DNA of 64,000 nt from Gammaproteobacteria bacterium (GTDB taxonomy: Bacteria > Pseudomonadota > Gammaproteobacteria > QZLD01), in the NCBI GenBank assembly GCA_033852075.1, contig JAWSVC010000010.1, forward strand, positions 105,683 through 169,682, given 5' to 3'. The translations under genes were made by a program, and so were the position numbers. The notes under the pieces were generated by a model that worked only from the letters and a program-made list of their open reading frames with translations, searched no databases and was not told the origin of the DNA. Within the stretch, counting starts at the first letter, position 1; the number at the start of each line of letters is the position of its first letter. Shown piece after piece: positions 11,575-63,655 of this stretch.

Positions 11575-11649
11575 AGAATCTTGTCGTGCAAAGATTATAT
11601 TTTCACTTTTTTGGGAATAGTGAATAAAAGGGTATGGAGTAAATTATTA

Positions 11650-39490: not shown

Positions 39491-40933
39491 ATGGATATAA
39501 CAGCGCGCAAGCCATTTAATAACCCTATCTTATGGAATAAATACATTAGAGTATTTAGAAGCTATGTTCCGGCGTGGTTATTGGTGCTTGGTATTATTGA
39601 ACTACTGGTGCTGATGATTATTTCGGTGTTTGCAGCGGCAGAATTTGATTTCTATCAGTTGTTTGCTGCTGATGGTAATTGTTTTTCATGCCTTTTTAAG
39701 GCTGGAATATTTAGTATTACTATTTGGTTGTCTATGATCTCAATGGGATTGTATCAGCGTAGGTTGCGAGAAGGTGCTGCAGGTATTGCGTTGAGAGTTG
39801 TTATAAGTCATATATTTGGAGCAATAGCTCTATTTTGTTTTTATTTCATTATCCCCAATATATCTATTGATTTTAAAATTACTTTTGCCGCATTAATTAT
39901 CTCATATATATCTATATTGATGGTTAGAATTGCCTTTCTGCGTTTGGTGGGTACAGAAGTTTTCAAAAGTAGAGTTATGGTTTTAGGTACTGGAGAAAAG
40001 GCTGGGGGTATAACTCATCTTAAGCGTTGGATTGATACGGTTGGCTATACTTTGGTTGGTTTTATAAATGTTGGTAATAGTGAACCAAAGATAGATATAG
40101 ACCGCATAATAGATTCGAAAGGTAAAACTTTGGCTCAACTAGTTCGTGAATATTGCGTTGATGAAATTGTTATTGCCTTTGATGATCGCCGTCGGCGTAT
40201 GCCTATGGACGATTTGCTTGATTGTAAAATGCTTGGGGTGAGAGTTGTAGATCTTATTACCTTCTATGAAAGGGAAACCTATAAGCTTAAATTAGATGTT
40301 ATGGATCGGAGTTGGTTGATCTTTTCAGATGGATTTCAGCAAGGTGTATATGCTCGGTGGATAAAGCGAATATTGGATATTATTGTTAGTGGTTCAATAT
40401 TGTTAATAACGATGCCTATTATGGTAATCACTGCCATTGCGATAAAATTAGAAAGTCATGGAGGAGTATTTTATTCCCAAAAAAGAGTTGGTTTTGCTGG
40501 TAAGCTATATTCTGTGCACAAGTTTCGCAGTATGGTGGCCAATGCCGAAAAAAACGGAGCTCAATGGGCAACCAAGAACGATAGTCGGGTAACAAAGGTT
40601 GGAGGGTTTATCCGTCTGACGCGGATTGATGAGCTTCCACAATTATGGAATGTATTAAAAGGTGATATGAGTTTTGTCGGGCCACGCCCTGAACGTCCAG
40701 AGTTTGTTGATCAGTTTTGTGAACGGATTGAATATTATGCAGAACGGCATAGGGTAAAACCTGGTATAACTGGTTGGGCACAGGTGTGTTATCCATATGG
40801 TGCATCGGAAAGTGATGCGTTCGAGAAACTTCAATACGACCTTTATTATGCCAAGAATAGCAGCCTGTTTCTTGATCTTATGATTATATTGCAGACAGTT
40901 GAGGTTATAGTTTGGCAAAAAGGGGCTCGCTGA
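39491..40933 (+). CDS. epsB: EPS polyprenyl glycosylphosphotransferase, EpsB-type (PEP-CTERM-system-associated sugar transferase)
   Basis: 480 aa with N-terminal TM helices and a C-terminal bacterial sugar-transferase domain (PGITGWAQV, DLYYAKNSSLFLDLMIILQT). It sits immediately upstream of prsK/prsR/prsT. Confidence 0.75.
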   Translation: MDITARKPFNNPILWNKYIRVFRSYVPAWLLVLGIIELLVLMIISVFAAAEFDFYQLFAADGNCFSCLFKAGIFSITIWLSMISMGLYQRRLREGAAGIALRVVISHIFGAIALFCFYFIIPNISIDFKITFAALIISYISILMVRIAFLRLVGTEVFKSRVMVLGTGEKAGGITHLKRWIDTVGYTLVGFINVGNSEPKIDIDRIIDSKGKTLAQLVREYCVDEIVIAFDDRRRRMPMDDLLDCKMLGVRVVDLITFYERETYKLKLDVMDRSWLIFSDGFQQGVYARWIKRILDIIVSGSILLITMPIMVITAIAIKLESHGGVFYSQKRVGFAGKLYSVHKFRSMVANAEKNGAQWATKNDSRVTKVGGFIRLTRIDELPQLWNVLKGDMSFVGPRPERPEFVDQFCERIEYYAERHRVKPGITGWAQVCYPYGASESDAFEKLQYDLYYAKNSSLFLDLMIILQTVEVIVWQKGAR

Positions 40934-40997
40934 TTTTTTGCAGGGCGTATAGCAATCCGCCAATAATAATTCCGCACGATAGAGAGATATAAATAGA

Positions 40998-43109
40998 ATG
41001 ATAAATCTAACTCTTGTAGCCTACATCGTATGTGCGGTAGCTTACCTGTTTCTTTTTGTTGTCTTGCTTATTGGGTGGCGGGGTAAAAAGGAGGGTGCGG
41101 TATTATTACTTGTCAGCGTACTTACTTTTGTATGGGCAATTTCAGGAATGTTAGTTACCGTTTCTCACGGTCATTTGGTAGCAATATCATTAATAATTGA
41201 AGGTTTAAGAAATGTTGCGATCATTGCTTTTTTGTTAACGTTATTGAAAAAGGTAACCTCTTTAGTTATTGAAGGCGAACATGTAAAGTCTTCACCCTAT
41301 TATTATTCAGTGTTGTCGGTATCAATTTTAATTCTGGCTTACAGTATAGGAATAGATCTGTTAACTAGTTTTACCCCTTGGATTGGTACAGTAACCCCAG
41401 GCATTTCCGGTCACTTGGCGACTTCAGTTTTAATCTTAGCGTTACTTGAACAACTCTATAGAAATACTGCAAATGAAAAGCGCTGGGGAATAAAATATAT
41501 AAGCTTGGCTTTTGCTGGAATATTTGTATATGAATTTTATCTCTATGCAGATTCTTTGCTTTTTAGTCGGATTGAGGCTGGAATTTGGGGCGCGCGCCCT
41601 TGGATTGTGGCTGTAGTATCACCATTAATAGCGGTTTCAGCTGCCAGGAATCCTAAATGGTCGCTCGATGTTTACGTTTCCAGGCAGGCTGTATTTCATA
41701 CTGCAACCCTTATTTGTGCAGGCATCTATTTATTATTAATGTCAATTGCCGGATTCTATATCAAAAAATATGGTGGCGATTGGGGGGCTGTAGCACAAGC
41801 GGTCTTTATTTTTGCGGCAATAATGGGGCTTTTATTAATTGTATTGTCCGGAAAAGCACGCTCATGGTTAAAGGTAACGGTTAATAAACATTTTTTTAAT
41901 TATAAATATGACTATCGTGAAGAGTGGATCAGATTTAATAAAACGCTAACCGCTCTTGATGATATTTTACCAATTCGAAATCGAGCGATTAAATCATTGG
42001 CACAGATAGTAGAGTCGCCAGCCGGACTGTTATTCAGCAAAAACCAGAATGGTGATTATCATCTTGCTGCAAATTGGAATACCCCTTTGCCAAAATCAGA
42101 CCTTATAGAAAGGGATGATCCATTAGCATTATTTATTGAAGAGAAGGAATGGATTATTGACCTGAATGAAAAAGCTAAGACTATAAGGAGCGAAGTTGGA
42201 GGGGGTAAAGGTGATATGAAGTATCAGCATTTGGTAATTGGAGATACCTTAAGTTGTGAAGAATACAGGTTTATAGTGCCGCTGTTAAATGAATCAGAGA
42301 TGTATGGTTTTGTTGTATTAAACGAACCTAGGTCTAAGCGTACCCTTAATTGGGAAGATGTTGATATATTAAAAACAGCTGGAAACCAGGTGGCTAGCTA
42401 TCTTGCTCAATTTGATGCTAATAACCAATTAACTATATCTAGGCAGTTTGAGGCTTATAATAGGCTTTCAACATTTGTAATTCATGATGTAAAGAACCTA
42501 GTAGGTCAGTTAACGCTGCTAAGTGCTAATAGCAAAAAGTTCAGACATAATGAAAAGTTTATTGACGATGCCTTCGAAACTGTAGAAAACGCTGTAGATA
42601 AGATGAATCATTTACTTGAACAGCTACGCAGCGGTATTGAGAAAAAGATTGTAGGAAGAGTCAATATTAGTGAACTGATGAAAACCATTATTCAGTTACG
42701 TAAGGCATCTGGTATTGAGATAGAAATTTATGATGATAGTAGTGCAAACTTTATTAGTGCAGATAAGCAGGAGCTTTCTGCTGTAATTGAGCATATTTTG
42801 CAAAATGCGATTGATGCTACAGTATCAAATAAGGAACAGGCTAAAGTGAAGATCTGTATCAACTCAGATGCAGAATTTTCTACTGTAAAAATTGAAGATA
42901 ATGGAGAGGGAATGAGCAGAGAGTTTATTCGTGATCGTCTTTTTTCTCCATTTGATACAACTAAAGGGGATTCTGGTATGGGGGTTGGTGTATATCAAGC
43001 AAGAGAATATATCACCAGGATTGGCGGTAGGATTGAAGTATGTAGTGAAGTAGGAATTGGTACAACTTTTGAGTTGTATCTGCCACTCGCAGTTTCAAGT
43101 GAAGAGTAA
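40998..43109 (+). CDS. prsK: PEP-CTERM-system sensor histidine kinase PrsK-like
   Basis: 703 aa with about 8 N-terminal TM helices, a central GAF-like region, an H-box region FVIHDVKNLVGQL, and an HATPase C-terminus. It is adjacent to a sigma-54 response regulator and a large TPR protein. Confidence 0.7.
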   Translation: MINLTLVAYIVCAVAYLFLFVVLLIGWRGKKEGAVLLLVSVLTFVWAISGMLVTVSHGHLVAISLIIEGLRNVAIIAFLLTLLKKVTSLVIEGEHVKSSPYYYSVLSVSILILAYSIGIDLLTSFTPWIGTVTPGISGHLATSVLILALLEQLYRNTANEKRWGIKYISLAFAGIFVYEFYLYADSLLFSRIEAGIWGARPWIVAVVSPLIAVSAARNPKWSLDVYVSRQAVFHTATLICAGIYLLLMSIAGFYIKKYGGDWGAVAQAVFIFAAIMGLLLIVLSGKARSWLKVTVNKHFFNYKYDYREEWIRFNKTLTALDDILPIRNRAIKSLAQIVESPAGLLFSKNQNGDYHLAANWNTPLPKSDLIERDDPLALFIEEKEWIIDLNEKAKTIRSEVGGGKGDMKYQHLVIGDTLSCEEYRFIVPLLNESEMYGFVVLNEPRSKRTLNWEDVDILKTAGNQVASYLAQFDANNQLTISRQFEAYNRLSTFVIHDVKNLVGQLTLLSANSKKFRHNEKFIDDAFETVENAVDKMNHLLEQLRSGIEKKIVGRVNISELMKTIIQLRKASGIEIEIYDDSSANFISADKQELSAVIEHILQNAIDATVSNKEQAKVKICINSDAEFSTVKIEDNGEGMSREFIRDRLFSPFDTTKGDSGMGVGVYQAREYITRIGGRIEVCSEVGIGTTFELYLPLAVSSEE

Positions 43110-43122
43110 TAGGCTAGGCATT

Positions 43123-44478
43123 ATGGAACAAGATAATAGAAAACTATTGATCGTAGAAGATGATAAGGGACTTCAAAAGCAGCTGAAGTGGAGCTTTGAG
43201 GAGTTTGAAGTAATTATTGCAGAAAATCGTCAGAGTGCTATCAAAGAATTACGCAGGCATGAGCCTGCTGTTGTTACCCTGGATTTGGGTTTGCCTCCGG
43301 ATAGTAATGGAGCAACGGAAGGGTTAGCAACTTTAACCGAGATTATTCAACTTGCACCACATACAAAAGTGATTGTTGTAACCGGAAATGATGATCGAGA
43401 GAATGCAGTTAAGGCTGTGAGTTTAGGGGCATATGATTTCTATCAAAAACCTGTAGATGCTGAAGTTCTTCAGTTGATAGTTAATCGTGCTTATGCATTG
43501 GCAGAATTAGAAGAAGAAAATCGAAAGCTCAAGAAAGGAGGACCTGATAGTCCTCTGGATGGAGTAGTTGCATCTAGCCCGGAAATGTTAAAGGTATGTA
43601 GAACTGTTGAAAAGATATCGTCTGTAGAAGTGACGTCTTTATTGCTTGGTGAAAGCGGTACCGGTAAAGAGGTTATAGCAAAAGCGATTCATCAGTTAAG
43701 TCCTCGCGCACATAATAATTTTGTAGCGATAAACTGTGCTGCTATTCCAGAAAATCTATTAGAGAGTGAACTATTCGGATATGAAAAAGGTGCTTTTACC
43801 GGAGCGGCCAAAAGAACTATTGGGAAAATAGAGCATGCCAATAAAGGAACATTGTTCTTGGATGAAATTGGTGATTTGCCAATGTCTTTGCAGGCTAAAC
43901 TGTTAAGATTTTTACAGGAGCGAGTGATAGAACGCTTGGGGGGCAGGGAGGAAATTCCTATTGATGTCAGAGTTATTTGTGCAACTAACCAAAATTTGGA
44001 AGAGTTGATAAAAAATAGTGGATTTAGAGAGGATCTTTACTATCGTGTAAGCGAGGTTGTGATAAATCTGCCTCCGCTTAGAGATAGAAAAGGTGATTCC
44101 TTAGTTATAGCTAAAAATTTCCTTAACAGGTTTGCTATGCAATATGGCCGTAAAATCAAAGGATTTAGTTCTGATGGCGTGGTTGCTATTGAAGGGTATA
44201 AGTGGCCAGGTAATGTTAGAGAGTTGGAAAATAAACTTAAACGTGCAGTTGTGATGGCTGATGGTGAATTTATTACCGCTGAGGATTTGGAATTGAGATC
44301 CGACGAAAATGTAGCACAGATGCCGTTTAATCTTAGACAAGTTAGAGATGAGGCAGAAAGGGGATGTATAGTAAATGCATTAGCCTATACTGAAGGGAAT
44401 ATATCTCATGCTGCGGAATTGTTGGGTGTAACCCGTCCAACCTTATATACCATGTTGAATAAGTATGGATTAGGGTGA
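43123..44478 (+). CDS. prsR: Sigma-54-dependent response regulator (PEP-CTERM-box regulator PrsR-like)
   Basis: Receiver domain (LLIVEDDKGL), AAA+ sigma-54 activator domain (GESGTGKE, GAFTGA, ESELFGYEKGAFTG), and a C-terminal HTH. Start at MEQDNRK (ATG 43123). Confidence 0.85.
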   Translation: MEQDNRKLLIVEDDKGLQKQLKWSFEEFEVIIAENRQSAIKELRRHEPAVVTLDLGLPPDSNGATEGLATLTEIIQLAPHTKVIVVTGNDDRENAVKAVSLGAYDFYQKPVDAEVLQLIVNRAYALAELEEENRKLKKGGPDSPLDGVVASSPEMLKVCRTVEKISSVEVTSLLLGESGTGKEVIAKAIHQLSPRAHNNFVAINCAAIPENLLESELFGYEKGAFTGAAKRTIGKIEHANKGTLFLDEIGDLPMSLQAKLLRFLQERVIERLGGREEIPIDVRVICATNQNLEELIKNSGFREDLYYRVSEVVINLPPLRDRKGDSLVIAKNFLNRFAMQYGRKIKGFSSDGVVAIEGYKWPGNVRELENKLKRAVVMADGEFITAEDLELRSDENVAQMPFNLRQVRDEAERGCIVNALAYTEGNISHAAELLGVTRPTLYTMLNKYGLG

Positions 44479-44739
44479 GGGTGTAATATTTAATAACACA
44501 TTTTCCCTTCTCAAATCAAAGTGCTTACAGGCTCAATTTGTAATTTGATTGTTGAGGCTGTTGGGCGGGATTCTTCGATTTTCGAAGGAGAAATCTGTTA
44601 TTATTCATGAGCCTGATATTGTTGATGATATTTTTTCGGGCGGCTGAGAGTGAAGGTTGGTATCCAGTTTTTAATAAGCGTATTAAAACAGAAAAAAGTA
44701 ATAGGAATATTAAATTCTAGAAAGGAACAGGGGTTAAAA

Positions 44740-47508
44740 ATGTTTAAAAAGATAGTCATGGTTCTTATCGCATCATTTTTGATGCAGATGGCAGTTACCG
44801 CAAATGCTGCATCAAAAGAGCAGTATTTGCAGAGTGCAAAGAAGTATTTTCGCGAAAATAAATTTCGTGAGGCCATAATTGAGCTTAAAAATGCTATTAA
44901 GGATGATCCTGAATACATAGATGCCAGAATATTTCTAGGTGATGTAAATGCGGCTACTGGTCAGCCACTTGCAGCAGAAAAAGAATATTTATACGCAAAA
45001 AAAGCAGGAGCAAAGGCATCGCTGTGGATGTTGCCGCTTGGAGATGTTTATATAGGAATGGGGCGTTACGATGAAGTATTATCTCAACTTAAACTTGGCA
45101 CCGATGCCACCCCTGAAGAATTATCGAAATTGTCAGTGCTTCGTGGAATGGCTTATGCTGGCTTGAAAAAGAAAGACAAGGCTGAAGAGGAGTTTGTTCG
45201 TGCTAGTCAGCTAGATGAAAAAAATGCCAGGGCATATCTTGGTCAGGCATCTCTTATGGTTAATCCGGATCAGTTGGATAAGGTGGAAGAGTTTATTTCC
45301 AAAGCTATAGAAGTGGAACCAAAGTTAGTCGATGCTCATCTGGCAATGACCACAGCAAAACTAAGAAGAAAGGATGTTGATGCAGCCATAGTTTCAATCG
45401 AAAAGGCTAGAGAATTATCTCCTTACAATATAAGAGTATTATTGGCAGCATCAGATATCTATCTTCTTAAAGGAAATTTAGATAAGGCTCAGGAAGACGT
45501 AGATACCGTTTTAAAGTCCCATCCATCGTTACCGATTGCAAATCATGTGAAGGCAATGGTTTCATATTCGCGGCAGGACTATGAAAGTGCAAAAAATCAT
45601 GCAGATAAAGTGTTAAGGGTTTCTAAGGACTATTTGCCTGCTATTCGTCTGCTTGGTGCAATTGCCCTTAATCGTGGAGAATATAACTCTGCTCAGGAAT
45701 TGTTACAAAAGGCTCATAGTCTTGCTCCAAAAGATATAAAGGTATTAAGAGCCTTGGCAGATACCCAATATCGGGCCAGTGAATATGCAAAAGCAAAAAT
45801 AAGCTTGAAGAATCTTCTAGAGCTTGATGAGAAAGATGCTGCTGCCATGTCTATGTTAGGTTCTGTTTATCTAAAACTTGGTGAAAAGGAAAAGGGTAAA
45901 CAATATATGGAGCAAGCAGTAAAACTTGATCCGAACGCTGCCAAGCTAAAAACCAATCTGGCTTTGGCCAATATTGCGATGGGGGATACAAAAGGCGCCA
46001 TTAATGCTCTTGAAGCAATAGGTGTAGGTGATGAATCTGCTAGATCTGATGCGTTACTGGCAATGGCATATGCAAAAGATAAGGAATATGACAAAGCTTT
46101 TGAAATTGCAAACAGGATGATAGATGGTGATGTTAGTTTATCTGGGGCTTACAATTTACGTGGTGAGATAAATCTAATGGCCAAAAATAACGAAGCAGCT
46201 CTTGCTGATTTCGCTAAGGCAATAGAAATTAATTCGGATAATAATAAGGCAATGCTAAACCTTGCGCGAACCAATGCAATATTGGGTAAATATGATTTGG
46301 CGCAACAGCAATTTCAGAAGTTACTGGAAAAAAAGAAAGATAATCTAGAGGCTATGCTAGGGCTAGTTGAGATAGCAAGACTAAATAAAAATCAACTTCA
46401 GGTTCAAAGTTGGTTAGAAAAAATCAATGAATTACATCCTACTCATATTCCATCTGCCGGTTTGTTGGTAAGTGTTTATCTGGGCCAAAAGGAATACCTA
46501 AAAGCGCTAGGGGTTTCTAGGAAGCTATATCAGTTATATCCTAAAAATGCTGATGTGATTGCTTTGTATGCAGAGCAGTTGATGCAAAATGGTGAAAATA
46601 AACAAGCTGCAAATTATTTTAAAGATGCATTGGATATAAAAACTGATGATCCGAAATTATATATTAGATTGGCTAGAGCCTATGCCGCAGATAAGGCAAA
46701 TAAAAAGGCCTTAGAAACAATTGATAAAGGTCTTAAGGAGTTGCCGGAAAACATTCCTCTACTTAAGGGTAAGGTGCGTGTATTAAAGCATGATAAGCAA
46801 GATGATAAGGCTTTAGTATTGTGTGAACAGTTAATGAAAAAGTTGCCACAAGATCCATTTGCTTATGATTTTGCAGGAGATATTTATGTTCAGCAAGAAA
46901 AGTATAAAAAAGCGGATGAACTATATCGCAAGACGATAGATCTTCAAGATAATCCGCAAACAAGGATTAAACTTCATAAGTTACTTACATTAAAAGGTAA
47001 AAATGACGAGGCTTTGGATCTTTTGCGAGAATGGTATAAGAAAGATAATGCATCGCAGCAGCTAAATGCCGTGTTTGCTCTTAATTTACAGCAGGTTGGA
47101 GTAAAAGATGAGGCAATTAAGGTTTATGAAGTAATGGTAAAAAATAATCCTAATGATCTTGTGGCACTGAATAATCTTGCCTGGATGTATATGGAAAAAG
47201 GTGATCTGGAGAATGCTCAGAAAACTGGTGAGCAAGCATATAAAATCAATCCGGAAATGGTTGCTGTGCTTGATACCTATGGCTGGATTTTAGTAAAAAG
47301 TGGCAAGATAGATGAAGGACAAAAATTACTGCAGCAAGCAGTTAGTAAGGCTCCACAAGATCGTGATGTCAGATATCATGTTGCTGCGACGTTAGCTAAG
47401 AAAGGGGATGTTAAGGGCGCTGTGATTGAACTGAAACAGGCTCTTTCTGGGGATGTGGATTTTCTGAGTAGGGAAGAGGCGCAGGAATTATTGCAGAAAC
47501 TGCAATAG
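44740..47508 (+). CDS. prsT: PEP-CTERM-system TPR-repeat protein PrsT-like (secreted or lipoprotein)
   Basis: 922 aa made almost entirely of TPR repeats, with an N-terminal signal peptide MFKKIVMVLIASFLMQMAVTANA. Position and size match PrsT. Start ATG 44740. Confidence 0.65.
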   Translation: MFKKIVMVLIASFLMQMAVTANAASKEQYLQSAKKYFRENKFREAIIELKNAIKDDPEYIDARIFLGDVNAATGQPLAAEKEYLYAKKAGAKASLWMLPLGDVYIGMGRYDEVLSQLKLGTDATPEELSKLSVLRGMAYAGLKKKDKAEEEFVRASQLDEKNARAYLGQASLMVNPDQLDKVEEFISKAIEVEPKLVDAHLAMTTAKLRRKDVDAAIVSIEKARELSPYNIRVLLAASDIYLLKGNLDKAQEDVDTVLKSHPSLPIANHVKAMVSYSRQDYESAKNHADKVLRVSKDYLPAIRLLGAIALNRGEYNSAQELLQKAHSLAPKDIKVLRALADTQYRASEYAKAKISLKNLLELDEKDAAAMSMLGSVYLKLGEKEKGKQYMEQAVKLDPNAAKLKTNLALANIAMGDTKGAINALEAIGVGDESARSDALLAMAYAKDKEYDKAFEIANRMIDGDVSLSGAYNLRGEINLMAKNNEAALADFAKAIEINSDNNKAMLNLARTNAILGKYDLAQQQFQKLLEKKKDNLEAMLGLVEIARLNKNQLQVQSWLEKINELHPTHIPSAGLLVSVYLGQKEYLKALGVSRKLYQLYPKNADVIALYAEQLMQNGENKQAANYFKDALDIKTDDPKLYIRLARAYAADKANKKALETIDKGLKELPENIPLLKGKVRVLKHDKQDDKALVLCEQLMKKLPQDPFAYDFAGDIYVQQEKYKKADELYRKTIDLQDNPQTRIKLHKLLTLKGKNDEALDLLREWYKKDNASQQLNAVFALNLQQVGVKDEAIKVYEVMVKNNPNDLVALNNLAWMYMEKGDLENAQKTGEQAYKINPEMVAVLDTYGWILVKSGKIDEGQKLLQQAVSKAPQDRDVRYHVAATLAKKGDVKGAVIELKQALSGDVDFLSREEAQELLQKLQ

Positions 47509-47769: not shown

Positions 47770-50700
47770 TTAATTCTCCACAAACGAAGTTGGTGGATCA
47801 ATTTCAGCATAAACTGGTTTCGTTGTTGCCCTTCTGTGTCCCAGTTTATATCCAAGCATTAACAAAGCCGGTGTCAGGATCAGGGTAAGAACTGTTGCAA
47901 AGGTTAGCCCTCCTGCAACTGCGGTTGCCAACTGTTTCCACCACTGAGAAGATGGGGCATCTATGGTTAAGTGTCTACCGATAAGGTCAATGTTCAGTCC
48001 CAGCATCATTGGCATTAGTCCGAGAATGGTGGTTACAGTTGTAAGCATTACCGGTCTTAATCTTTGGGCCCCGGTACGAATAATTGCCTCAGCAGCTCCC
48101 ATGTTGGTTGTTTCTAAAAGTTGGTTGAAGGTATCAATCAAAACGATATTGTTATTAACCACAATCCCTGCCAGAGATATAACTCCAATTCCACTCATAA
48201 CAATACCAAATGGTGTGCCAGTAATCATGTGCCCAAGTAAAACCCCTGCGGTTGAGAAAACGACCGCACTTAAGATCAGTAGCGACTGGAAGAAGCTATT
48301 GAATTGGGTAACTAGAATAATGGCAATCATAAATATTGCTACCATGAATGCCTTTAATAGGAATATAGTTGCTTTTTGCTGTTCTTCGTTGTCTCCACGG
48401 AAGCGGATGTTGACTCCGTTAGGAAGAATCTGATTTTTTTGTATTAGGCTTCGTATCTCTTTTATCTTTTGGTCCGATGTTACCTTTTCACCATTTTGAT
48501 CGGTTTTGATTATATCTGCCTCAATAGTTAGAACCCTTCTACCATCAACACGCTCTATCTTGCTGATTCTGTTTTTTGGGATCAGCTTTACAAAATTGCT
48601 GGCCGGAATATTTCCGTTTTGGGTTGGAATGCGAATCTTCTTAAGCTGATCAATGCTGCGGTTAACCTCTGGAAAACGGATGCGGATATCAAGTTCGTCT
48701 ACAGAGTCATCTGGGCGGAAAGTCCCGATATTGATGCCATTGGTAACCATCTGTACCGCATTGCCAAGGCTTGTAATATCTGCTCCATATTTGCTGGCTT
48801 CAGCGCGGTCTACTTTTAGTTGCCATTCAATTCCTGGGATAGGGCGTGAGTCGCTTATATTGATCAGCCCTTCAATCTCGTTATGAAACATATTGGACAG
48901 GTCCTCAATTGCAGGAGGAAGTAAATCGTAATCTATTGAATTTATTTCAACCTGGATGGCCTTGCCTTGGCTGGGACCATGTTTTTCTTTTTGAGTTTCT
49001 ATAACGATTCCGTTCAGGTGAACGGTGTTATCACGAATTTCCTGAAAGATCTCTTCTGCTGGTCTGCGGATTTGCCAATCGGCAAATTCAAGTTGAATAA
49101 TGCCGATAACATCTTCAGTTATGCCAGGGCCGCCAAACTTAAGTCCGCTTCTGCTATATACCGTAGTAAATCCTTCGATTTTCAGTACCTGATCTTCAAC
49201 CTCGGCTACAAGCTTGTCTCTTTCATAAATCGAAAGGTCTCCGCGAGCATGAATTAATACCATTCCATTTTCCGGTTCAGCTTCCGGGAACAGTTCAACG
49301 CCATTTCCAAATTTACCATAGAGAACTATGGTGCAAACCAGGATTAATAATATGCTTAAAAGGGTTTTTGCCGGATGTTTTACCGCGGTGGAAAGTACTT
49401 TTATGTATATCTTGGTAAAGCCTGTCATGTGATTTAGATCGCCAGATTCTGCAATAGCAAGGTTTTCCATATTGCGGTCACTATCTGGTGCCCGTTTGCC
49501 AAAGATTGACCCTAGGCTTGGTACAAATATAAGGGCCATAAATAATGAAGCTGCTAGAGTAGTAATCAGGGTTATGGGTAGATATTTCATAAACTCTCCC
49601 ATTATCCCCGGCCAGACAATTAATGGGGCAAAGGCGGCAAGTGTGGTTGCGGTTGATGCGATTATAGGCCATGCCATCCTTTTGGATGCGATCATATATG
49701 CCTGTTTTTTACAAAGCCCTTCGGCCATTTTGCGATCTGCTATCTCTACCACAACAATTGCGCCATCTACCAACATTCCTACCGACATAATAAGGCTGAA
49801 AAGCACTACCATGTTGATAGTAAACCCCATGGCAGCTAGGATTAGAATTCCGGTAACAAAAGATCCTGGTATCGCCATTCCTACCAGCCCAGCCGATCTT
49901 AATCCAAGTGAGGCGATAATAACGATCATTACCAGAATAACTGCAAATATTACGTTGTTCTGTAGTTCGCGCAGCATGTCGTTGATGACTATAGATTGAT
50001 CTTGAGAGAAACCGATATTTATACCTTTAGGCCATAGGCTTTGTTCATTCTTTACCAGCTGCTTTACCTTGGATAAGGTATCAATAACATTGGCACCAAT
50101 CGATTTTGAAACCTCCAGCGCAATTGCTGGTTGGCCATTAACTCTGGCGAACTCTAATGGATCTTTATATATCCTTTGGCCGGTTGCAATGTCACTGAAT
50201 TTTATAACGGTATTGCCATCTACCTTTATGGGGACATCAAGAATATCCTCAATCTCTTCAAATACTCCGGGAACCTTTATTGAGAATCGACCTTCTCCTG
50301 TGTCTAATGCACCTGCAGCAACCAAACGATTGTTGCGTGATACAAACTGGAATATTTCACTTTGAGAAAGGTGATAACTCTCCATTTTTTGTGGGTCGAT
50401 AACAATTTCGATCATCTCATCTTTATCGCCGGCAATGCTGGCTCCGTATACCCCTGATATTGATTCAATCTTGTCTTTAAGGTCATTGGCAATAGTTATT
50501 AAAGTGCGATCAGATACATCTCCTGATAAGGTGATAACTAAAACGGGAAACAGGGCAACATTTACCTCGCTTACCACTGGGTCATCAGATTCTCCAGGCA
50601 GGTCTGATTTGGCGGTATCAACCTTATCACGAACATCGCGCAGGGCTTTTTCACTGTCAAATCCAGCTTGGAATTTAATGGTGATATTTGCATTACTTTC

Positions 50701-50958
50701 TGATGCCGTAGAGGTGATTTCATCCAGGCCTTCAACGCTGCGTAATTCGGTTTCCATAGGGCGAATTAGCAGCCTTTCTGAATCTGTAGCAGATATTCCT
50801 TCGTGGTGAATAGAGACGTTGATTATCGGAATGGCAACATCAGGAAATGATTCCTTAGGTATGGAGATGTAAGAAACCGTTCCTGAAATCAGAATAAGAA
50901 GCAAGATCAGCAGTACTGATCTGGTGTGTCTAAGGGTTGACTGAATAGCTGTGCGCAT
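47770..50958 (-). CDS. RND-family efflux transporter permease (AcrB/CzcA superfamily)
   Basis: 1062 aa with 12 TM segments and two large periplasmic loops. Confidence 0.9.
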   Translation of the reverse strand: MRTAIQSTLRHTRSVLLILLLILISGTVSYISIPKESFPDVAIPIINVSIHHEGISATDSERLLIRPMETELRSVEGLDEITSTASESNANITIKFQAGFDSEKALRDVRDKVDTAKSDLPGESDDPVVSEVNVALFPVLVITLSGDVSDRTLITIANDLKDKIESISGVYGASIAGDKDEMIEIVIDPQKMESYHLSQSEIFQFVSRNNRLVAAGALDTGEGRFSIKVPGVFEEIEDILDVPIKVDGNTVIKFSDIATGQRIYKDPLEFARVNGQPAIALEVSKSIGANVIDTLSKVKQLVKNEQSLWPKGINIGFSQDQSIVINDMLRELQNNVIFAVILVMIVIIASLGLRSAGLVGMAIPGSFVTGILILAAMGFTINMVVLFSLIMSVGMLVDGAIVVVEIADRKMAEGLCKKQAYMIASKRMAWPIIASTATTLAAFAPLIVWPGIMGEFMKYLPITLITTLAASLFMALIFVPSLGSIFGKRAPDSDRNMENLAIAESGDLNHMTGFTKIYIKVLSTAVKHPAKTLLSILLILVCTIVLYGKFGNGVELFPEAEPENGMVLIHARGDLSIYERDKLVAEVEDQVLKIEGFTTVYSRSGLKFGGPGITEDVIGIIQLEFADWQIRRPAEEIFQEIRDNTVHLNGIVIETQKEKHGPSQGKAIQVEINSIDYDLLPPAIEDLSNMFHNEIEGLINISDSRPIPGIEWQLKVDRAEASKYGADITSLGNAVQMVTNGINIGTFRPDDSVDELDIRIRFPEVNRSIDQLKKIRIPTQNGNIPASNFVKLIPKNRISKIERVDGRRVLTIEADIIKTDQNGEKVTSDQKIKEIRSLIQKNQILPNGVNIRFRGDNEEQQKATIFLLKAFMVAIFMIAIILVTQFNSFFQSLLILSAVVFSTAGVLLGHMITGTPFGIVMSGIGVISLAGIVVNNNIVLIDTFNQLLETTNMGAAEAIIRTGAQRLRPVMLTTVTTILGLMPMMLGLNIDLIGRHLTIDAPSSQWWKQLATAVAGGLTFATVLTLILTPALLMLGYKLGHRRATTKPVYAEIDPPTSFVEN

Positions 50959-50963
50959 CAGAA

Positions 50964-52118
50964 TTACCCTCCAGTAACAGATGAAGAGTTAGTGGTGTTA
51001 GTTATCTCTTCAATAGTTGCTTTAACCTGCTCTCCATCTTTTACGAATCCATGACCAATAGTTATTACCTGAACATTGGCAGGCAGTCCGGTAACCCAGG
51101 TTGTATTTGATGATGAGTTGATGATTTCAATTGGCAAAAATTTAACTTTGTTGTCGGAAGTTACAGTCTTTACTCCGATATTTCCAGATGGATCAAGTGA
51201 TATTATTGAAGGGGATATAGTATGGGTAATGATGTCGTCATTGTTAAGACATAGTTCAGCAGTCAACCCTGCAAGGATTTGATTATCCTCATTGATCGCT
51301 TTTAATTCTACAGCAAAGGTTCTGGTTTGTGCATTGGCAATAGATGAAATATAGCTGACTGAGCCTTTAGCATTGATACCGGAAAGAGTGGTTGCTGTTC
51401 CTGTGGTGCCGATTTTTATCTTGGAAATATTTTGTTCGGTTATTGATGTGTCAAAAACAATAGGGGAAATGGTTATTAGTTCTGCCAATGCTTTGCCTGT
51501 GGTTATAAAATCACCTTCTTCGGTATATGTGGTGTTGATAATTCCGTCGAATGGGGCGGTGATAGAAATGTTTTCGATCTCAAGCTTTATTTGCGCAAGC
51601 TGAGTTTTTGCCCCTTCAAGGTTAGCCTTGGCCGCAGCCAAATTGGTTTCTGTAGAAAAATTCTTTTTCTGTAGTTTTTTGGCGACTTGATATTCCAGTT
51701 TAAAGCGTTCAAGTTGAGCTTCTGCCTGAGATTTTCTTTCAATCCGGTCATCAAGATCTATTTTAAAAAGGATATCACCTTTTTTAACGTTATCTCCTTT
51801 GGAGACTAATTTTTTTGATAGTTTGCCCGATACTTCAGCTTTTACCTCAAGTATTTTTGATGGTTTGGTCGTCGCTGTGGTGCATATTTTAGGGGAAAAA
51901 CTAACTTGTTTTAAAATCTGTGTGCGAACATGTTTGATTTCGTCTTTGGTTGGCTTAACTATTGGTTTGTTAATAACGGGCTCAGATGAATAGGCTCCGG
52001 ATGCTATCCAACCAGTAAGTAAAATGGCAATTGTTATAGCAATTATTATTGATTGGTTGGTTTTTATAGCTTTTATCATTGTCGGTACCTTTGTATATCT
52101 CAGATCAGGCTTCGGCAC
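50964..52118 (-). CDS. RND efflux periplasmic adaptor (membrane fusion protein, HlyD family)
   Basis: N-terminal TM anchor, central coiled coil (AEAQLERFKLEYQVAKKLQKK ... LEGAKTQLAQIKLEIE), and beta-barrel and lipoyl-like segments. The real start may be the internal Met at 52079. Confidence 0.8.
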   Translation of the reverse strand: MPKPDLRYTKVPTMIKAIKTNQSIIIAITIAILLTGWIASGAYSSEPVINKPIVKPTKDEIKHVRTQILKQVSFSPKICTTATTKPSKILEVKAEVSGKLSKKLVSKGDNVKKGDILFKIDLDDRIERKSQAEAQLERFKLEYQVAKKLQKKNFSTETNLAAAKANLEGAKTQLAQIKLEIENISITAPFDGIINTTYTEEGDFITTGKALAELITISPIVFDTSITEQNISKIKIGTTGTATTLSGINAKGSVSYISSIANAQTRTFAVELKAINEDNQILAGLTAELCLNNDDIITHTISPSIISLDPSGNIGVKTVTSDNKVKFLPIEIINSSSNTTWVTGLPANVQVITIGHGFVKDGEQVKATIEEITNTTNSSSVTGG

Positions 52119-52145: not shown

Positions 52146-52952
52146 TTATGCAATGCTACGTCCCGGTTCTAGCTGAGATTTAGATTTTAAAGTTGAGCAT
52201 ACATAAGAGAATGCAGAATCAATACGCTGATTGTCTGGTAGCGTAGCTCGTATCATCTGAAGATAGTCTCTTTGTAAAATAAGCTGTGCAGTTTTATCAT
52301 GATTAATATCGAAAACCCAGCTTAATTGCAACAACTTAAAGTCATTTAATGAATGCAGTTCATTATACTTTATAGGTTTGTGAGAGAAAATGCTATTAAT
52401 CGCTGAATCTGAAATGTGCTTGCTATCTTCAAGTTCTAGTTCAACGGTTTTATTCTTTTCAGTATTGCGGTTTTGATAGTGTTCGGTGACGACTCGGTAT
52501 ATGTCCAGTTTATCTGCATCTCTAAGTAAAGATAAGAAAAACTGAGAGCGTTCGGATAGTCCGGTTGGGAGCTTGGGGAGATTGTGGTGGCGCACGCAGT
52601 CGATGATTATGTGTTTATCTCGTGATTCTACAAAATCGAGGATATTAGAATCTTCAAGAATTTCAGCACCAAATTCTCCGTGACTTACTGAGCGGTTATC
52701 GGCAAAGGTGGAATATTTTACATACTGTTCAAATCTTCCAATATCATGTAAAAGCCCAATTGCCTCCGCCAGTATAAGATCGTTTCTATCAACACCAATA
52801 CTAAGAGCAATTGTGGTGATCTCTTTGCTAACCTTCCAAGAGTGAACCTCTTTTAAGCCAATATTTTTTTTCCAGTCTGGAACGCGATATTTAAAAGACC
52901 GCACATACTCAGTGAATTTGAGTTTTATATCATTTAATTGTTCCAGTTCCAT
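52146..52952 (-). CDS. HD-domain metal-dependent phosphohydrolase
   Basis: H...HD...H...HH...D pattern (LLHDIGRF, VSHGEFG, VRHHNL, RDADKLD). Confidence 0.7.
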   Translation of the reverse strand: MELEQLNDIKLKFTEYVRSFKYRVPDWKKNIGLKEVHSWKVSKEITTIALSIGVDRNDLILAEAIGLLHDIGRFEQYVKYSTFADNRSVSHGEFGAEILEDSNILDFVESRDKHIIIDCVRHHNLPKLPTGLSERSQFFLSLLRDADKLDIYRVVTEHYQNRNTEKNKTVELELEDSKHISDSAINSIFSHKPIKYNELHSLNDFKLLQLSWVFDINHDKTAQLILQRDYLQMIRATLPDNQRIDSAFSYVCSTLKSKSQLEPGRSIA

Positions 52953-52976
52953 CAGAATCTCCTACAACTAATTCCG

Positions 52977-53579
52977 TTAGCCGACGTTATCAAGTATCCG
53001 TTTTCTAAATTTTACATGTCTTTCTGTGGCCAGTTTTTCGCAGGCGTCTATATCGACACCGTTAAGACCTTCGATAGCAGAGGCGGTAACATCATCGATA
53101 TATTTGGGTGCCATCTCAACAAAATCCAACATTGCCTGGTATGATCCAATCATGGCCGGTTGGCAGTGGTGGTTATATACCTTTTCATTTTGAGCATTCA
53201 TTGATATTGATATTGCATCAACACACTCACCAAGCTCAGGTAGTACATTGCGTTTATAGACAAGATTTGCCAATCCATCAGTATTTACACGAACCTTGCC
53301 TCCGTGGTCTTTAATCCAATGCGCAATGGCTAAAAGCTCTTTTAGACGCAAGGTTGGTTCTCCAAATCCGCAAAAAACTATCTCGGTATATTTGGTTGGA
53401 TCGCCAATCGCGGCAATGTAATGCTCGACATCGGTTTTTTCATGTAGTGTTAAATCGTATTTATGAACGATTGGGTGACCTTGGGTTTTAGGACAGAACT
53501 GACATTTAAGTGTGCAGGTGCTATTCAGATTTATATAGCGACGGTCTTCAATATCATAAACCAGAATGTCGTCAGACAT
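52977..53579 (-). CDS. Small radical-SAM protein (4Fe-4S CX3CX2C), QueE/NrdG-sized
   Basis: CTLKCQFC near the N-terminus and a GFGEPTL SAM/Gly-rich motif. 200 aa. It is co-directional with the HD gene, 24 nt upstream of it. Confidence 0.7.
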   Translation of the reverse strand: MSDDILVYDIEDRRYINLNSTCTLKCQFCPKTQGHPIVHKYDLTLHEKTDVEHYIAAIGDPTKYTEIVFCGFGEPTLRLKELLAIAHWIKDHGGKVRVNTDGLANLVYKRNVLPELGECVDAISISMNAQNEKVYNHHCQPAMIGSYQAMLDFVEMAPKYIDDVTASAIEGLNGVDIDACEKLATERHVKFRKRILDNVG

Positions 53580-53711
53580 ATGACCCTCTTAGAGTTAAAA
53601 TAGTAGAGGCTTTTAAAACCTTTTTGATTTCCTAGCAAAATGTGTGAAGCGAGAATTTCGCTGCAATGCAGCATTGTAGCATTGTTTTTGTTGTGAAATC
53701 AATAAGGAAAA

Positions 53712-61010: not shown

Positions 61011-62417
61011 TTAGTTTTCTTGGGTAACCTCTTCGGAAGCGATAATAACTTGATTGCGTCCATTTTCTTTAGCTTCATAGAGGGCGTTATCGGCGCGTTC
61101 AATAAAGTGAGTTGTTGATTCGTCGTCTTGATATAGCGCAGCACCAAATGAAGCTGTTATGTTTATGTCTTTGTCTTCAAGATGTATGGGTTCCATTTCA
61201 ATGGCTCTTCGTAAACGTTCTGCAAGTCCTGCGGCTCCTTCCAAATTACAGTTTGGAAGAATAATTACGAATTCTTCGCCTCCATATCGGCATGGGGTAT
61301 CCATTTTACGAACAATATTTCTAATTCTTTGAGATACTTCAGTAAGAGCGATATTTCCGGATAAGTGGCCATACTGGTCATTAAAGTTTTTGAAGTGATC
61401 GATATCGACAATTATTAAAGATAGAGGCTGTTTGTAATTTGCACGATTATATTCCCGGACTCGTTTGTCGAGTGCTTCCTGAAAGTAGCCAAAGTTTTTC
61501 AAATTTGTGAGTTTGTCTGTGATGGCTTGTATTCTTAATTCTTCATTTAGAGCCTCGATTTCATTATTTTTATCTTGAATTTGATCGCGTTGTTTACAGG
61601 TTGTTTCTAATAGGGATCTCAATTGACCAATAAATTGATTAAAGTTATCCGCAAGATCACCAATTTCATCGTTAGTGGTGCATTTTACCAGTCCGCCGGT
61701 AAGCCCATCTGATAAGTTCATATCCTTGATGGAGGTATTGATTTCGCGGATAGCCTTAAGGACGGTTTTCATTACAATTGCCCCTATGATCAGGATAATT
61801 ATAAGGGTGGCAATCCCTGTGGTAATTGCTGTGGAGATACCTTGCTCTGCTTCTTTTTTGGTGGCGTTGACAGCCTGAGAATGATTACGGATAGAATTTT
61901 CACGGAAAGACCATGTTTTTTGGCGGCACTGTTGAAGCAGTGACCGCATCTTTTGGCGTTCTGGAACTATTTCTTTTAAAAATGAAGGATCTCTGGCTTG
62001 GGTTGAGTTGTCTATAACCTTGATTGAGAGCGGTAATGCAGCTTCATACCATTGGGTGCATGTTTCTTTTATCGAGGTAGATTGCTGACTTATTGCTGAG
62101 TTGCCTATGCTTAATTTATTGAGATCAGAAATAAATGCTTGCCATATGGTTTCTGTGGTATTGGCTAGGTCAATATCGCCGATAGATACTGCTGAATCAA
62201 GGGTGTCAGAGATGCGTTCTAAACGCATATTGTTGGAATTTGCTACCTCGATTGCAGGGGTGTAAATAGATTCAATAGTAGTAAGTCGTGTGTCATTATT
62301 GCTGGCAATTGTATAGGAAGTGATTGTGTATATCATAAATCCAATTGCCGCTACTAAAGGAATTAATCCAAACTTGATTTGGATAGGCCAATCCCTGAAA
62401 TTCCGGAATCTTGTCAT
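61011..62417 (-). CDS. Diguanylate cyclase (GGDEF) with a periplasmic sensor domain, two TM helices and a HAMP-like linker
   Basis: RYGGEEF active-site motif and an RxxD I-site region; N-terminal TM - about 160-aa periplasmic region - TM. Confidence 0.85.
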   Translation of the reverse strand: MTRFRNFRDWPIQIKFGLIPLVAAIGFMIYTITSYTIASNNDTRLTTIESIYTPAIEVANSNNMRLERISDTLDSAVSIGDIDLANTTETIWQAFISDLNKLSIGNSAISQQSTSIKETCTQWYEAALPLSIKVIDNSTQARDPSFLKEIVPERQKMRSLLQQCRQKTWSFRENSIRNHSQAVNATKKEAEQGISTAITTGIATLIIILIIGAIVMKTVLKAIREINTSIKDMNLSDGLTGGLVKCTTNDEIGDLADNFNQFIGQLRSLLETTCKQRDQIQDKNNEIEALNEELRIQAITDKLTNLKNFGYFQEALDKRVREYNRANYKQPLSLIIVDIDHFKNFNDQYGHLSGNIALTEVSQRIRNIVRKMDTPCRYGGEEFVIILPNCNLEGAAGLAERLRRAIEMEPIHLEDKDINITASFGAALYQDDESTTHFIERADNALYEAKENGRNQVIIASEEVTQEN

Positions 62418-63655
62418 TAGAACACCATATTTATAGCAAATGTAAACATATCAACATGGCCTCTGCCATTAGGACTAAATATAAAGTTATTGGTGTTATG
62501 TTTGGCATTGAAACGTCGCAGCTCTGCTTTTATGTCTATACCAGGTTGATAGGCGTAGCGAAAACCAATGGCGCTAACCTCAAGATTTAGATAGCCTACT
62601 CTATATGTGTATTCAACTAGCTCATCTACCGCGCTTTCCAGGCCAAATGTTTCTATGTATCCACCAGCTGGTGCATGGTATGGGTCATGTGATCCTGTGT
62701 TTTTTGAATACCCGTATTCAAAATATGGCATTAGTCTTGGCGTTATGTTCCAACCGGAAACCAGATACCAAACAACCATGTCTGGGCTCAGGCGGCCCCC
62801 TAAATGTTTAGCTAAATGCCCCATTAAATAAAGGTCTTCATCTTCATAGCGAAAACCAATGGCTGGACGACGAAAGAGTGAATCTTCTGAGAAATATGGA
62901 TCGTTTAACATTTCATCACGAATACCTGCAGCATATACCTCAGGGTAGCCATAGCCCAGCAGTGTAGGGTATACGGCGTCATTTATGATAATGTCCCAAG
63001 GATAGGTATCAAATTTATGGGCGCTGTACATAAACCACAGTTCAAGCCAATCTTCTTTTAGTAATGAAAGCTGAAATCCTTTGAATTTTCCATATGACTG
63101 AATGTCGCGATCTTCGAGATAGAATGGATTAAAAATAAGGTCCCAATCTCCTATGGGGCGGCGATAGATGGCATCGACCCCTTTTACTTCTCCCCCAAGT
63201 CCATATAGATCGAATAATGGAAGTGGCCAGGGATAAGCCAGCCCAACATGGCGTACCTGAGAAAGCATAAGAAATGGTGACACCATTTTGCCGGCACGGA
63301 TGGTAAGGTTGTCGGTTGGCTTGTAGGCAAGATAGGCCCATTCCCAGTCAAGCTGCCAATCTTTTCTTCCAAGCACAACTGCTTGGGTGACCAGGCTGAA
63401 ATCATCATATGAGAGAATATGGTGCAATCCCAATGTTGTTGGCCAAACTATATCTAGGTCATCATCCAAAGGTCGTTTAATGTCACCAGATGGGGCACCG
63501 TGAAGTTCTTGATCTGTTCCCCCTACTATTTGTGCTCCCCCTAGAGTTAGAAAGCCGTAGCCTTCAGATCTTATACCATTCCATTCATAATCAAATCTTG
63601 CATAGGAGGTGTTGGTAAAACTTACAGCGATTAGGAGAAAAATTATTTGTTTCAT
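62417..63655 (-). CDS. Outer-membrane beta-barrel (porin-like) protein, hypothetical
   Basis: Signal peptide (LLIAVSFTNTSYA), aromatic-rich alternating strands, and a C-terminal Phe (…FAINMVF). Its stop overlaps the GGDEF gene start. Confidence 0.45.
   Translation of the reverse strand: MKQIIFLLIAVSFTNTSYARFDYEWNGIRSEGYGFLTLGGAQIVGGTDQELHGAPSGDIKRPLDDDLDIVWPTTLGLHHILSYDDFSLVTQAVVLGRKDWQLDWEWAYLAYKPTDNLTIRAGKMVSPFLMLSQVRHVGLAYPWPLPLFDLYGLGGEVKGVDAIYRRPIGDWDLIFNPFYLEDRDIQSYGKFKGFQLSLLKEDWLELWFMYSAHKFDTYPWDIIINDAVYPTLLGYGYPEVYAAGIRDEMLNDPYFSEDSLFRRPAIGFRYEDEDLYLMGHLAKHLGGRLSPDMVVWYLVSGWNITPRLMPYFEYGYSKNTGSHDPYHAPAGGYIETFGLESAVDELVEYTYRVGYLNLEVSAIGFRYAYQPGIDIKAELRRFNAKHNTNNFIFSPNGRGHVDMFTFAINMVF

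Follow-up and report, generated by a model that had tools for sequence, protein, structure and literature searches.

A TIGR04038 radical SAM gene followed by a predicted HD phosphohydrolase gene in a narrow clade of Gammaproteobacteria

Radical SAM (rSAM) enzymes use a [4Fe-4S] cluster to cleave SAM reductively, and the resulting 5'-deoxyadenosyl radical abstracts a hydrogen atom. To our knowledge, OxsA/OxsB is the only established case in which an HD phosphohydrolase and an rSAM enzyme are paired on nucleotides. In this oxetanocin-A system, the HD phosphohydrolase works together with the rSAM enzyme on nucleotide substrates (PMC9204698). Fusions of an rSAM domain to a TatD nuclease domain occur in Thermodesulfovibrio, Geoalkalibacter, and Magnetococcales. 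On the nuclease side, YcfH and TatD of Escherichia coli act in vitro as Mg-dependent 3'-exonucleases with AP-endonuclease activity and are linked to peroxide tolerance (PMC10085689). Here we compare these systems with an rSAM gene and an HD-domain gene found side by side in a 64-kb stretch of gammaproteobacterial DNA, the whole of which is called the window below.

The features of the locus are listed in Table 1. A preliminary description of the locus had placed the rSAM gene 24 nt ahead of the HD gene on the same strand, and the pair between the RND pump and pyrC. This arrangement was found as described: the gap is exactly 24 nt, with a PyrC-like gene upstream and the genes of an RND membrane-fusion protein (MFP) and an RND pump downstream, all on the minus strand. 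The two motifs reported for the 200-aa rSAM protein, CTLKCQFC (CX3CX2C) and GFGEPTL, are both encoded in 52977..53579(-). The minus-strand gene upstream of rSAM encodes a 349-aa Amidohydro_1 protein, which by sequence reading is probably a PyrC of the E. coli type. Both ORFs of the pair are regarded as real genes, because their Pfam scores exceed the cutoffs (Radical_SAM, 42.8 bits against 29.5; PF01966 for the HD protein, 42 bits against 22) and because they have thousands of homologues at E<=1e-3 (1938 for the rSAM protein and 4135 for the HD protein).

Table 1. Features of the rSAM-HD locus in the window
Feature	Position	Strand	Description
rSAM gene	52977..53579	(-)	200 aa, stand-alone; TIGR04038/IPR023821 member
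HD-domain gene	52146..52952	(-)	268 aa; HDIG-type, predicted metal-dependent phosphohydrolase
rSAM-HD spacer	52953..52976	(-)	24 nt, with Shine-Dalgarno sequence AGGAG at 52959-52963
RND MFP gene	50964-52118	(-)	Pfam BSH_RND; directly downstream of HD
RND pump gene	47770-50958	(-)	Pfam ACR_tran; downstream of MFP gene
Candidate promoter and palindrome	53660..53702	(-)	TTGATT-18 nt-TACAAT with TG; palindrome GCTGCATTGCAGC at 53660-53672

The layout of the locus is operon-like. AGGAG ends 6 nt ahead of the ATG of the HD gene, and a scan of the minus strand between the rSAM, HD, and pump genes gave no terminator-like sites. Since these features and the short gap of 24 nt fit an operon, co-transcription of rSAM and HD is plausible. 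The first possible start of the MFP gene is 27 nt beyond the HD stop codon, and the MFP and pump genes may be co-transcribed with the pair.

The rSAM protein was compared with the NCBIfam models. It scored 252.9 bits with TIGR04038 ("TatD family nuclease-associated radical SAM"; cutoff, 129.7), and the match takes in residues 6-196 and, on the model, positions 2-191 out of 192. By this score, it belongs clearly to TIGR04038/IPR023821, a curated family whose function is uncharacterised. The cluster cysteines of the CX3CX2C motif are Cys22, Cys26, and Cys29; GFGEPTL lies at residues 71-77, and the GGE-type SAM motif at 71-75. Residues were taken as conserved throughout the family when at least 85% of the fused representatives (75) and of the stand-alone ones (54) keep them. 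The window rSAM retains all of them, including Cys70 within FCGxGEP: present are C22/C26/C29, C70-G71-x-G73-E74-P75, R97, T100, G102, D121, S124, S126, N128, Y135, and R194. Cys139 and Cys180 fall short of universal conservation in the family (about 77% and about 65%, respectively), and an obligatory auxiliary cluster is therefore unlikely.

These scores bear on whether the rSAM protein could be QueE, NrdG, or another activase of a glycyl radical enzyme, with its partners encoded elsewhere. PFL-AE, NrdG, and QueE are minimal cores, and the window rSAM was far below the cutoffs of the first two (PFLA model, 18.2 bits against 231.75; NrdG2 model, 21.1 bits against 131.15), whereas the score with the family-specific TIGR04038 model was far above its cutoff. 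No QueE model appeared among the 25 best NCBIfam matches. In addition, no glycyl radical enzyme was found among the approximately 25 annotated ORFs of the window, no queuosine genes were seen among them, and the fusion partner of the rSAM family is TatD, not a glycyl radical enzyme. Such a role is effectively refuted by the profile scores. The preliminary description had already set QueE aside, correctly, and NrdG is excluded as well; the profile search that it called for also brought to light the membership in TIGR04038/IPR023821, which it had missed.

Prokaryotic viperin (pVip) was rejected on the basis of the model NF038283 (28.6 bits against a cutoff of 180); the pVip models of PADLOC gave 33 and 24 bits and covered only the N-terminal core. 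As a group, the NrdG2, PFLA, MoaA, and viperin models scored 18-29 bits against cutoffs of 131-284, and the structural ranking also spoke against these and against QueE. An anti-phage defence system was likewise rejected, as PADLOC gave only weak, generic pVip and Cas3-HD matches. Single-sequence and profile searches of the PDB yielded no meaningful sequence relatives of either the rSAM or the HD protein. The function had initially been called unassigned, and this agrees with the searchable literature, which holds no functional study of TIGR04038/IPR023821 (IPR023821 is only listed in one preprint) and no experiments on members of the rSAM family or the HD family.

In order to describe the rSAM family as a whole, 1.84 billion cluster representatives (clusters at 50% identity) were searched with a profile, and 912 relatives were obtained at E<=1e-10. 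Full TatD_DNase(N)-rSAM(C) fusions, about 450-485 aa long, make up half (75) of the 150 best representatives; in them, the rSAM domain is joined to the conserved housekeeping nuclease YcfH. Another 12 are intermediate in length, and the 8 of these that were scanned all proved to be truncated TatD-rSAM fusions. The remaining 63 are of 260 aa or less; 54 of them are full-length stand-alone proteins and the others fragments. Amphritea, Zooshikella, and Sedimenticola are among the genera with a stand-alone gene. PF01026 (TatD_DNase) was followed by PF04055 (Radical_SAM) in 10 out of 10 longer proteins scanned; every fusion checked was of the TatD-rSAM kind, and none joined an rSAM to an HD domain. 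The TatD domains of 108 of 119 fusions carry the HxH motif of group II (YcfH/YjjV type) in the grouping of PMC10085689.

The genomic position of the fusion genes is in keeping with that of ycfH. In Geoalkalibacter and a CG1_02_64_396 proteobacterium, the fusion gene closes the series tmk-holB-PSP1-metG-(fusion); we take the end of the tmk-holB-PSP1-metG operon to be the slot occupied by ycfH in E. coli and by yabD in Bacillus subtilis. In Thermodesulfovibrio-type genomes, the fusion follows apgM. Across the TIGR04038 family, YcfH-type TatD is an obligate-looking partner of the rSAM domain.

Aligned with proteobacterial TatD-rSAM fusions, the window rSAM reaches 50% identity (197 aa) to the rSAM domain of P0244 and 52% to that of a Magnetococcales fusion. 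These alignments place the similarity between the window protein and the TatD-fused rSAM domains at the level of orthology. With the fusions of Thermodesulfovibrio, Geoalkalibacter, and Magnetococcales, the window protein shares the motifs CX3CX2C and GGE, Cys70, and the remaining conserved residues. On the other hand, the window protein is stand-alone and is followed by an HD hydrolase, whose fold is unrelated to that of TatD. No TatD-like sequence was detected in the window by tblastn; where fusion or adjacency to TatD is the contextual hallmark of TIGR04038, the gene downstream of the window rSAM encodes the HD protein. This hallmark does not define the family by sequence, and 63 of the 150 best representatives lack the fusion as well. 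E. coli YcfH/TatD, the usual partner of the rSAM family, resembles the HD protein in being a two-metal phosphoesterase, but it is absent from the locus and has a TIM-barrel, amidohydrolase-like fold instead of the all-helical HD fold. An HD partner is a new context for TIGR04038, a family that was already known and is uncharacterised.

The HD protein also matched TIGR00277 (HDIG; 31.1 bits against a cutoff of 27.6). Its six-ligand motif H..HD..H..H..D is intact, a pattern typical of two-metal HD enzymes, and H37, H69, D70, H91, H123, D145, and D147 are invariant in 40 HD homologues. The protein consists of an HD core (about residues 30-160) and a conserved helical C-terminal domain of about 100 aa (LNDFKLLQ..W.FD.N), and the AF2 model is confident (pLDDT 92). 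With the whole protein, Foldseek found no match in the PDB at E<=1e-3. In fold, the HD core comes closest to 2pq7, a predicted HD hydrolase, to YedJ of E. coli, and to YpgQ of B. subtilis, the last of which is an NTP pyrophosphohydrolase. Identity to these three is 13-22%, and the window protein differs from them by the additional helical C-terminal domain. From its motifs, the HD protein is predicted to be an HDIG-type two-metal phosphohydrolase. Matches to the HD domains of Cas3 and Cas10 were weak and far below the cutoffs.

The six-ligand motif would also suit a mixed-valent di-iron oxygenase of the TmpB/PhnZ type, which could form with the rSAM protein an O2-dependent and O2-independent pair for a single oxidative step. 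TmpB gave the best non-generic matches of the HD protein in both NCBIfam and the PDB sequences, each of them weak (E 1.9e-4 and E 0.099, respectively), and GBBH/TmpA-like TauD dioxygenases or DUF971 proteins are encoded downstream of rSAM in other lineages. However, the motif is common to many two-metal HD hydrolases, the score with the TmpB model was 21 bits against a cutoff of 300, and the HD family occurs mainly in strict anaerobes, among them an archaeon of the Methanotrichaceae. Judged on the equivalog cutoff, the closest fold, and the distribution of the family, the protein is not placed among the di-iron oxygenases TmpB, PhnZ, and MIOX. We give an oxygenase very little credence.

The two genes differ in their relatives. 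Beyond its own clade, the HD protein has its nearest relatives, at 44-47% identity, in anaerobes belonging to other phyla; those named by taxon belong to Methanotrichaceae, Bacteroidales, Deltaproteobacteria, Aminicenantes, Omnitrophica, and Chloroflexi, and some HD homologues are fused to a ferredoxin domain. By contrast, the rSAM protein has many gammaproteobacterial relatives with 60-68% identity. This difference indicates that the two genes have different histories and that HD was recruited to its position. To judge from its relatives, the HD gene looks imported from outside Gammaproteobacteria. No clear compositional trace of a recent transfer was found, the GC content of HD being about 37-39% and that of its neighbours 38-44%.

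The preliminary description had named a lack of conservation of the adjacency among its refuting conditions, and the adjacency was examined from both sides. For rSAM, 586 relatives were confirmed by scanning genomes; the 80 best loci, all gammaproteobacterial, were inspected together with 4 contigs. For HD, 80 metagenome loci and 4 contigs were inspected. An HD homologue was found within 6 kb of rSAM only in L001, which has the same sequence as the window, and in L005 and L006, which come from the assemblies JAWSVB01 and JAWSVA01. Within this clade, in which the rSAM proteins are 83-100% and the HD proteins 68-100% identical, the pair is kept in every member seen. The spacer between rSAM and HD is 40 nt in L005 and L006, and the entire block miaA-mutL-argG-pyrC-rSAM-HD-MFP-RND of these two loci is syntenic with the window. 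With synteny over the whole region, conservation of the pair in the clade does not exceed that of the surrounding 12 kb.

Outside the clade, the neighbours of rSAM vary. No HD gene was present within 6 kb in the 80 other gammaproteobacterial rSAM loci, and a TatD gene was within that distance in only one of them. In these loci, the genes tightly coupled to rSAM on its downstream side include one for a DUF971+MoaD fusion (about 14-17 loci), one for a GBBH/TmpA-like TauD dioxygenase (9 loci, often overlapping by 4 nt), and one for the tRNA-modification rSAM MnmL/YtqA (5-6 loci, overlapping by 11 nt). Because the tightly coupled downstream gene changes from lineage to lineage, adjacency to rSAM is a weak predictor of function. 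Upstream of rSAM, an HDOD protein, a cytochrome c' type protein, or a pair of M16 peptidases is encoded. The M16 pair, which rSAM directly follows in some other gammaproteobacteria, is 38 kb away in the window, and this indicates that rSAM occupies a different site in the clade of the window. Around HD, neither a TIGR04038 rSAM nor TatD was found within 5 kb in any of 83 HD-family loci, and no neighbour family occurred in more than 6 of the 83. A different rSAM, of 313 aa, adjoins an HD-family member in one lineage (L086/L087 and L089, with HD directly after it) and is near the HD gene in two more loci.

The adjacency is limited to one narrow clade, and the pair is absent from 80 rSAM and 83 HD loci outside it; the shared pathway that had been deduced from adjacency is accordingly not supported. 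The rSAM-HD pair is real, and a shared pathway is unproven. The two genes may indeed be incidental neighbours. The rSAM protein would then act alone or with YcfH encoded elsewhere, as in most gammaproteobacteria, and HD would be a housekeeping nucleotide pyrophosphohydrolase or phosphodiesterase independent of it, gained by horizontal transfer and inserted by chance between rSAM and the RND genes, so that co-transcription of the two would have no functional meaning. Besides the confinement of the pair to a clade with full regional synteny, this account agrees with the variable neighbours of rSAM over the 80 other loci, with the stand-alone nature of the HD family in the 83 loci, and with the resemblance of the HD core to generic stand-alone hydrolases (2pq7, YpgQ, and YedJ). 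Against it, the rSAM family is independently and strongly linked to a metal-dependent phosphoesterase, the spacer is short and contains a Shine-Dalgarno site, and a foreign HD gene was retained at exactly this position with all catalytic residues down to 68% identity. Because rSAM tolerates many neighbours, and HD-family genes show no preferred one, we regard incidental adjacency as a serious possibility, almost as likely as the reading that we favour below.

The short gaps of 24 and 27 nt, the common strand of rSAM, HD, MFP, and RND pump genes, and the absence of a predicted terminator among them raise another possibility, namely that the pair makes a modified nucleoside or small molecule that the RND pump exports. 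An rSAM-catalysed rearrangement followed by dephosphorylation by HD would parallel OxsA/OxsB (PMC9204698), and the window rSAM weakly resembles viperin and MoaA, two enzymes with NTP substrates. However, OxsB is a large cobalamin-dependent rSAM, whereas the window rSAM consists of a 200-aa core and lacks a B12 domain and any further domain for substrate binding. OxsA was not among the best 60 structural matches of the window HD protein, which is not OxsA-like, and the setting of OxsA/OxsB is a natural-product cluster, whereas that of the window pair is chromosomal housekeeping. Orthologues of the rSAM are fused to housekeeping YcfH in replication/translation operons, not in biosynthetic clusters, and the pump arrangement of the window was not seen at the other gammaproteobacterial rSAM loci. 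Export of a product of the pair is therefore improbable.

The explanation that we favour, tentatively, is that rSAM and HD form a lineage-specific operon and that HD, an imported phosphoesterase, takes over or supplements the role of the TatD partner on a nucleotide or nucleic-acid substrate. Two precedents speak for such a coupling: OxsA/OxsB (PMC9204698) and the one other lineage with an HD-family gene directly behind a different small rSAM. We infer the functional coupling, the substrate class, and the order of the steps as follows. The rSAM protein would bind a [4Fe-4S] cluster via Cys22, Cys26, and Cys29 and cleave SAM reductively, and its 5'-deoxyadenosyl radical would abstract a hydrogen atom from the substrate; Cys70, conserved across the family, is a candidate catalytic residue. 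Because the rSAM domain recurs fused to a housekeeping two-metal nuclease, the substrate would be a nucleotide residue or a nucleic-acid end. An HDIG-type HD phosphohydrolase, probably acquired from outside Gammaproteobacteria and placed 24 nt downstream of rSAM, would supply the step of phosphoester hydrolysis, replacing or supplementing TatD. As HD is a predicted two-metal phosphoesterase that appears to have been imported and fixed 24-40 nt behind rSAM, supplying or supplementing the cleavage step of the partner is the most economical role for it. The nucleotide or cofactor step proposed in the preliminary description stands in part: a nucleotide or nucleic-acid role is still plausible through the link to TatD, but not through conservation of the pair.

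A more specific form of this explanation, that HD is a non-orthologous replacement of YcfH-type TatD and that the rSAM/phosphoesterase system processes damaged or modified nucleotides in DNA, RNA, or the nucleotide pool, is rather unlikely in our estimation. If HD does replace TatD, the contribution of the partner narrows to metal-dependent phosphoester cleavage, with nothing specific to TatD. Such a replacement would give the first functional handle on IPR023821, a large and widespread rSAM family, and would offer a two-protein system that may lend itself better to biochemical dissection than the fusion does. Should the adjacency be incidental, what is left is the correct annotation of two conserved genes without known function.

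Upstream of rSAM, no riboswitch or other Rfam RNA element was found at E<=1. The promoter scan as a whole was at chance level (22 sites against 20.6 expected), and one of its matches, TTGATT-18 nt-TACAAT with TG, lies upstream of rSAM and is directly followed by a 13-bp palindrome, GCTGCATTGCAGC. When the spacers between pyrC and rSAM of the window, L005, and L006 were compared, the −10-like TACAAT together with this palindrome was the only well-conserved block. The palindrome is a possible candidate for an operator of the rSAM-HD unit.

Two alternative kinds of gene were found directly behind the TIGR04038 radical SAM gene (rSAM) when the best 80 of its 586 relatives were examined. In Sedimenticola-type gammaproteobacteria, the gap between rSAM and the next gene is 26-96 nt, and this gene encodes a fusion of a zinc domain like the N-terminal domain of gamma-butyrobetaine hydroxylase (GBBH) (DUF971, PF06155) with a MoaD/ThiS-like sulfur-carrier domain; about 14-17 of the 80 loci have this arrangement. 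Nine further loci carry a TauD-family dioxygenase gene downstream of rSAM, frequently with a 4-nt overlap, and the encoded protein is closest, but weakly, to gamma-butyrobetaine and TmpA dioxygenases. GBBH consists of a DUF971 half and a TauD-domain half. The DUF971 fusion and the TauD dioxygenase may therefore be related to one another as neighbours of rSAM.

A third neighbour was observed in Amphritea and its relatives, in which MnmL/YtqA, a tRNA-modification radical SAM protein matching TIGR01212 with 376 bits, is encoded by a gene that overlaps rSAM by 4-11 nt. This overlap is a hint that the function of the TIGR04038 family is related to RNA. Locations of these neighbours and of the other features are listed in the table.

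Features of the window and of the compared loci (L numbers)
Feature	Location	Remarks
DUF971-MoaD/ThiS-like fusion gene	L002:6668-7312	Directly downstream of rSAM; also L014, L017, L029, L030, L034, L044, L065, L070, L083 and others
TauD-family dioxygenase gene	L022:786-1670; L025:6585-7451	After rSAM; also L035, L067, L072 and others
MnmL/YtqA gene	L011:6590-7609	Overlaps rSAM; also L027, L037, L077, L081
TatD-rSAM fusion genes	L169:5001-6386; L171:5001-6380	End of tmk-holB-PSP1-metG operon
HD-family regions	L086:3993-5840; L085:1-5810	Also HD homologue proteins P0230, P0237
M16 (insulinase-type) peptidase gene pair	window 11581-14414	Adjoins ftsY-ftsE-ftsX-rpoH
-10-like element TACAAT	last base at window 53673	Abuts the palindrome

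The final gene of the tmk-holB-PSP1-metG operons of L169 and L171 encodes a TatD-rSAM fusion. Since the fusion occupies the ycfH/yabD slot, the entire housekeeping YcfH of these bacteria bears a radical SAM domain. In Geoalkalibacter (L169:6793-10976), genes for an RND pump and a membrane-fusion protein adjoin the fusion gene in convergent orientation; the resemblance to the window pump downstream of the rSAM-HD pair is probably a coincidence.

A gene pair orthologous to the M16 peptidase pair of the window is followed after 1-3 nt by the start of rSAM in eight or more other loci of gammaproteobacteria. It is therefore apparent that the location of rSAM changed in the clade of the window. Comparison of the pyrC-rSAM spacer among the window and the related genomes L005 and L006 revealed only one well-conserved block, which consists of the -10-like element and, directly after it, a perfect 13-bp palindrome, GCTGCATTGCAGC (window 53660-53672). 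The palindrome is a candidate operator for some regulator.

Among the homologues of the HD protein, some carry fused two-[4Fe-4S] ferredoxin domains. In the HD-family loci L086 and L089, the HD gene lies directly 3' of another radical SAM gene, whose 313-aa product has a C-terminal winged-helix domain, alongside NifX-like and Mrp/ParA-ferredoxin genes; MOSC and flavodoxin-like genes precede the HD gene in L085.

Elsewhere in the window, two ORFs of more than 400 aa each, at 4540-5793 (+) and 62417-63655 (-), gave no Pfam match at E<=1e-5. The run of genes at 39491-47508 resembles exopolysaccharide (PEP-CTERM-type) regulatory loci in its set of encoded proteins: a sugar transferase (Bac_transf), a histidine kinase, a sigma-54 response regulator, and a TPR protein of 952 aa.
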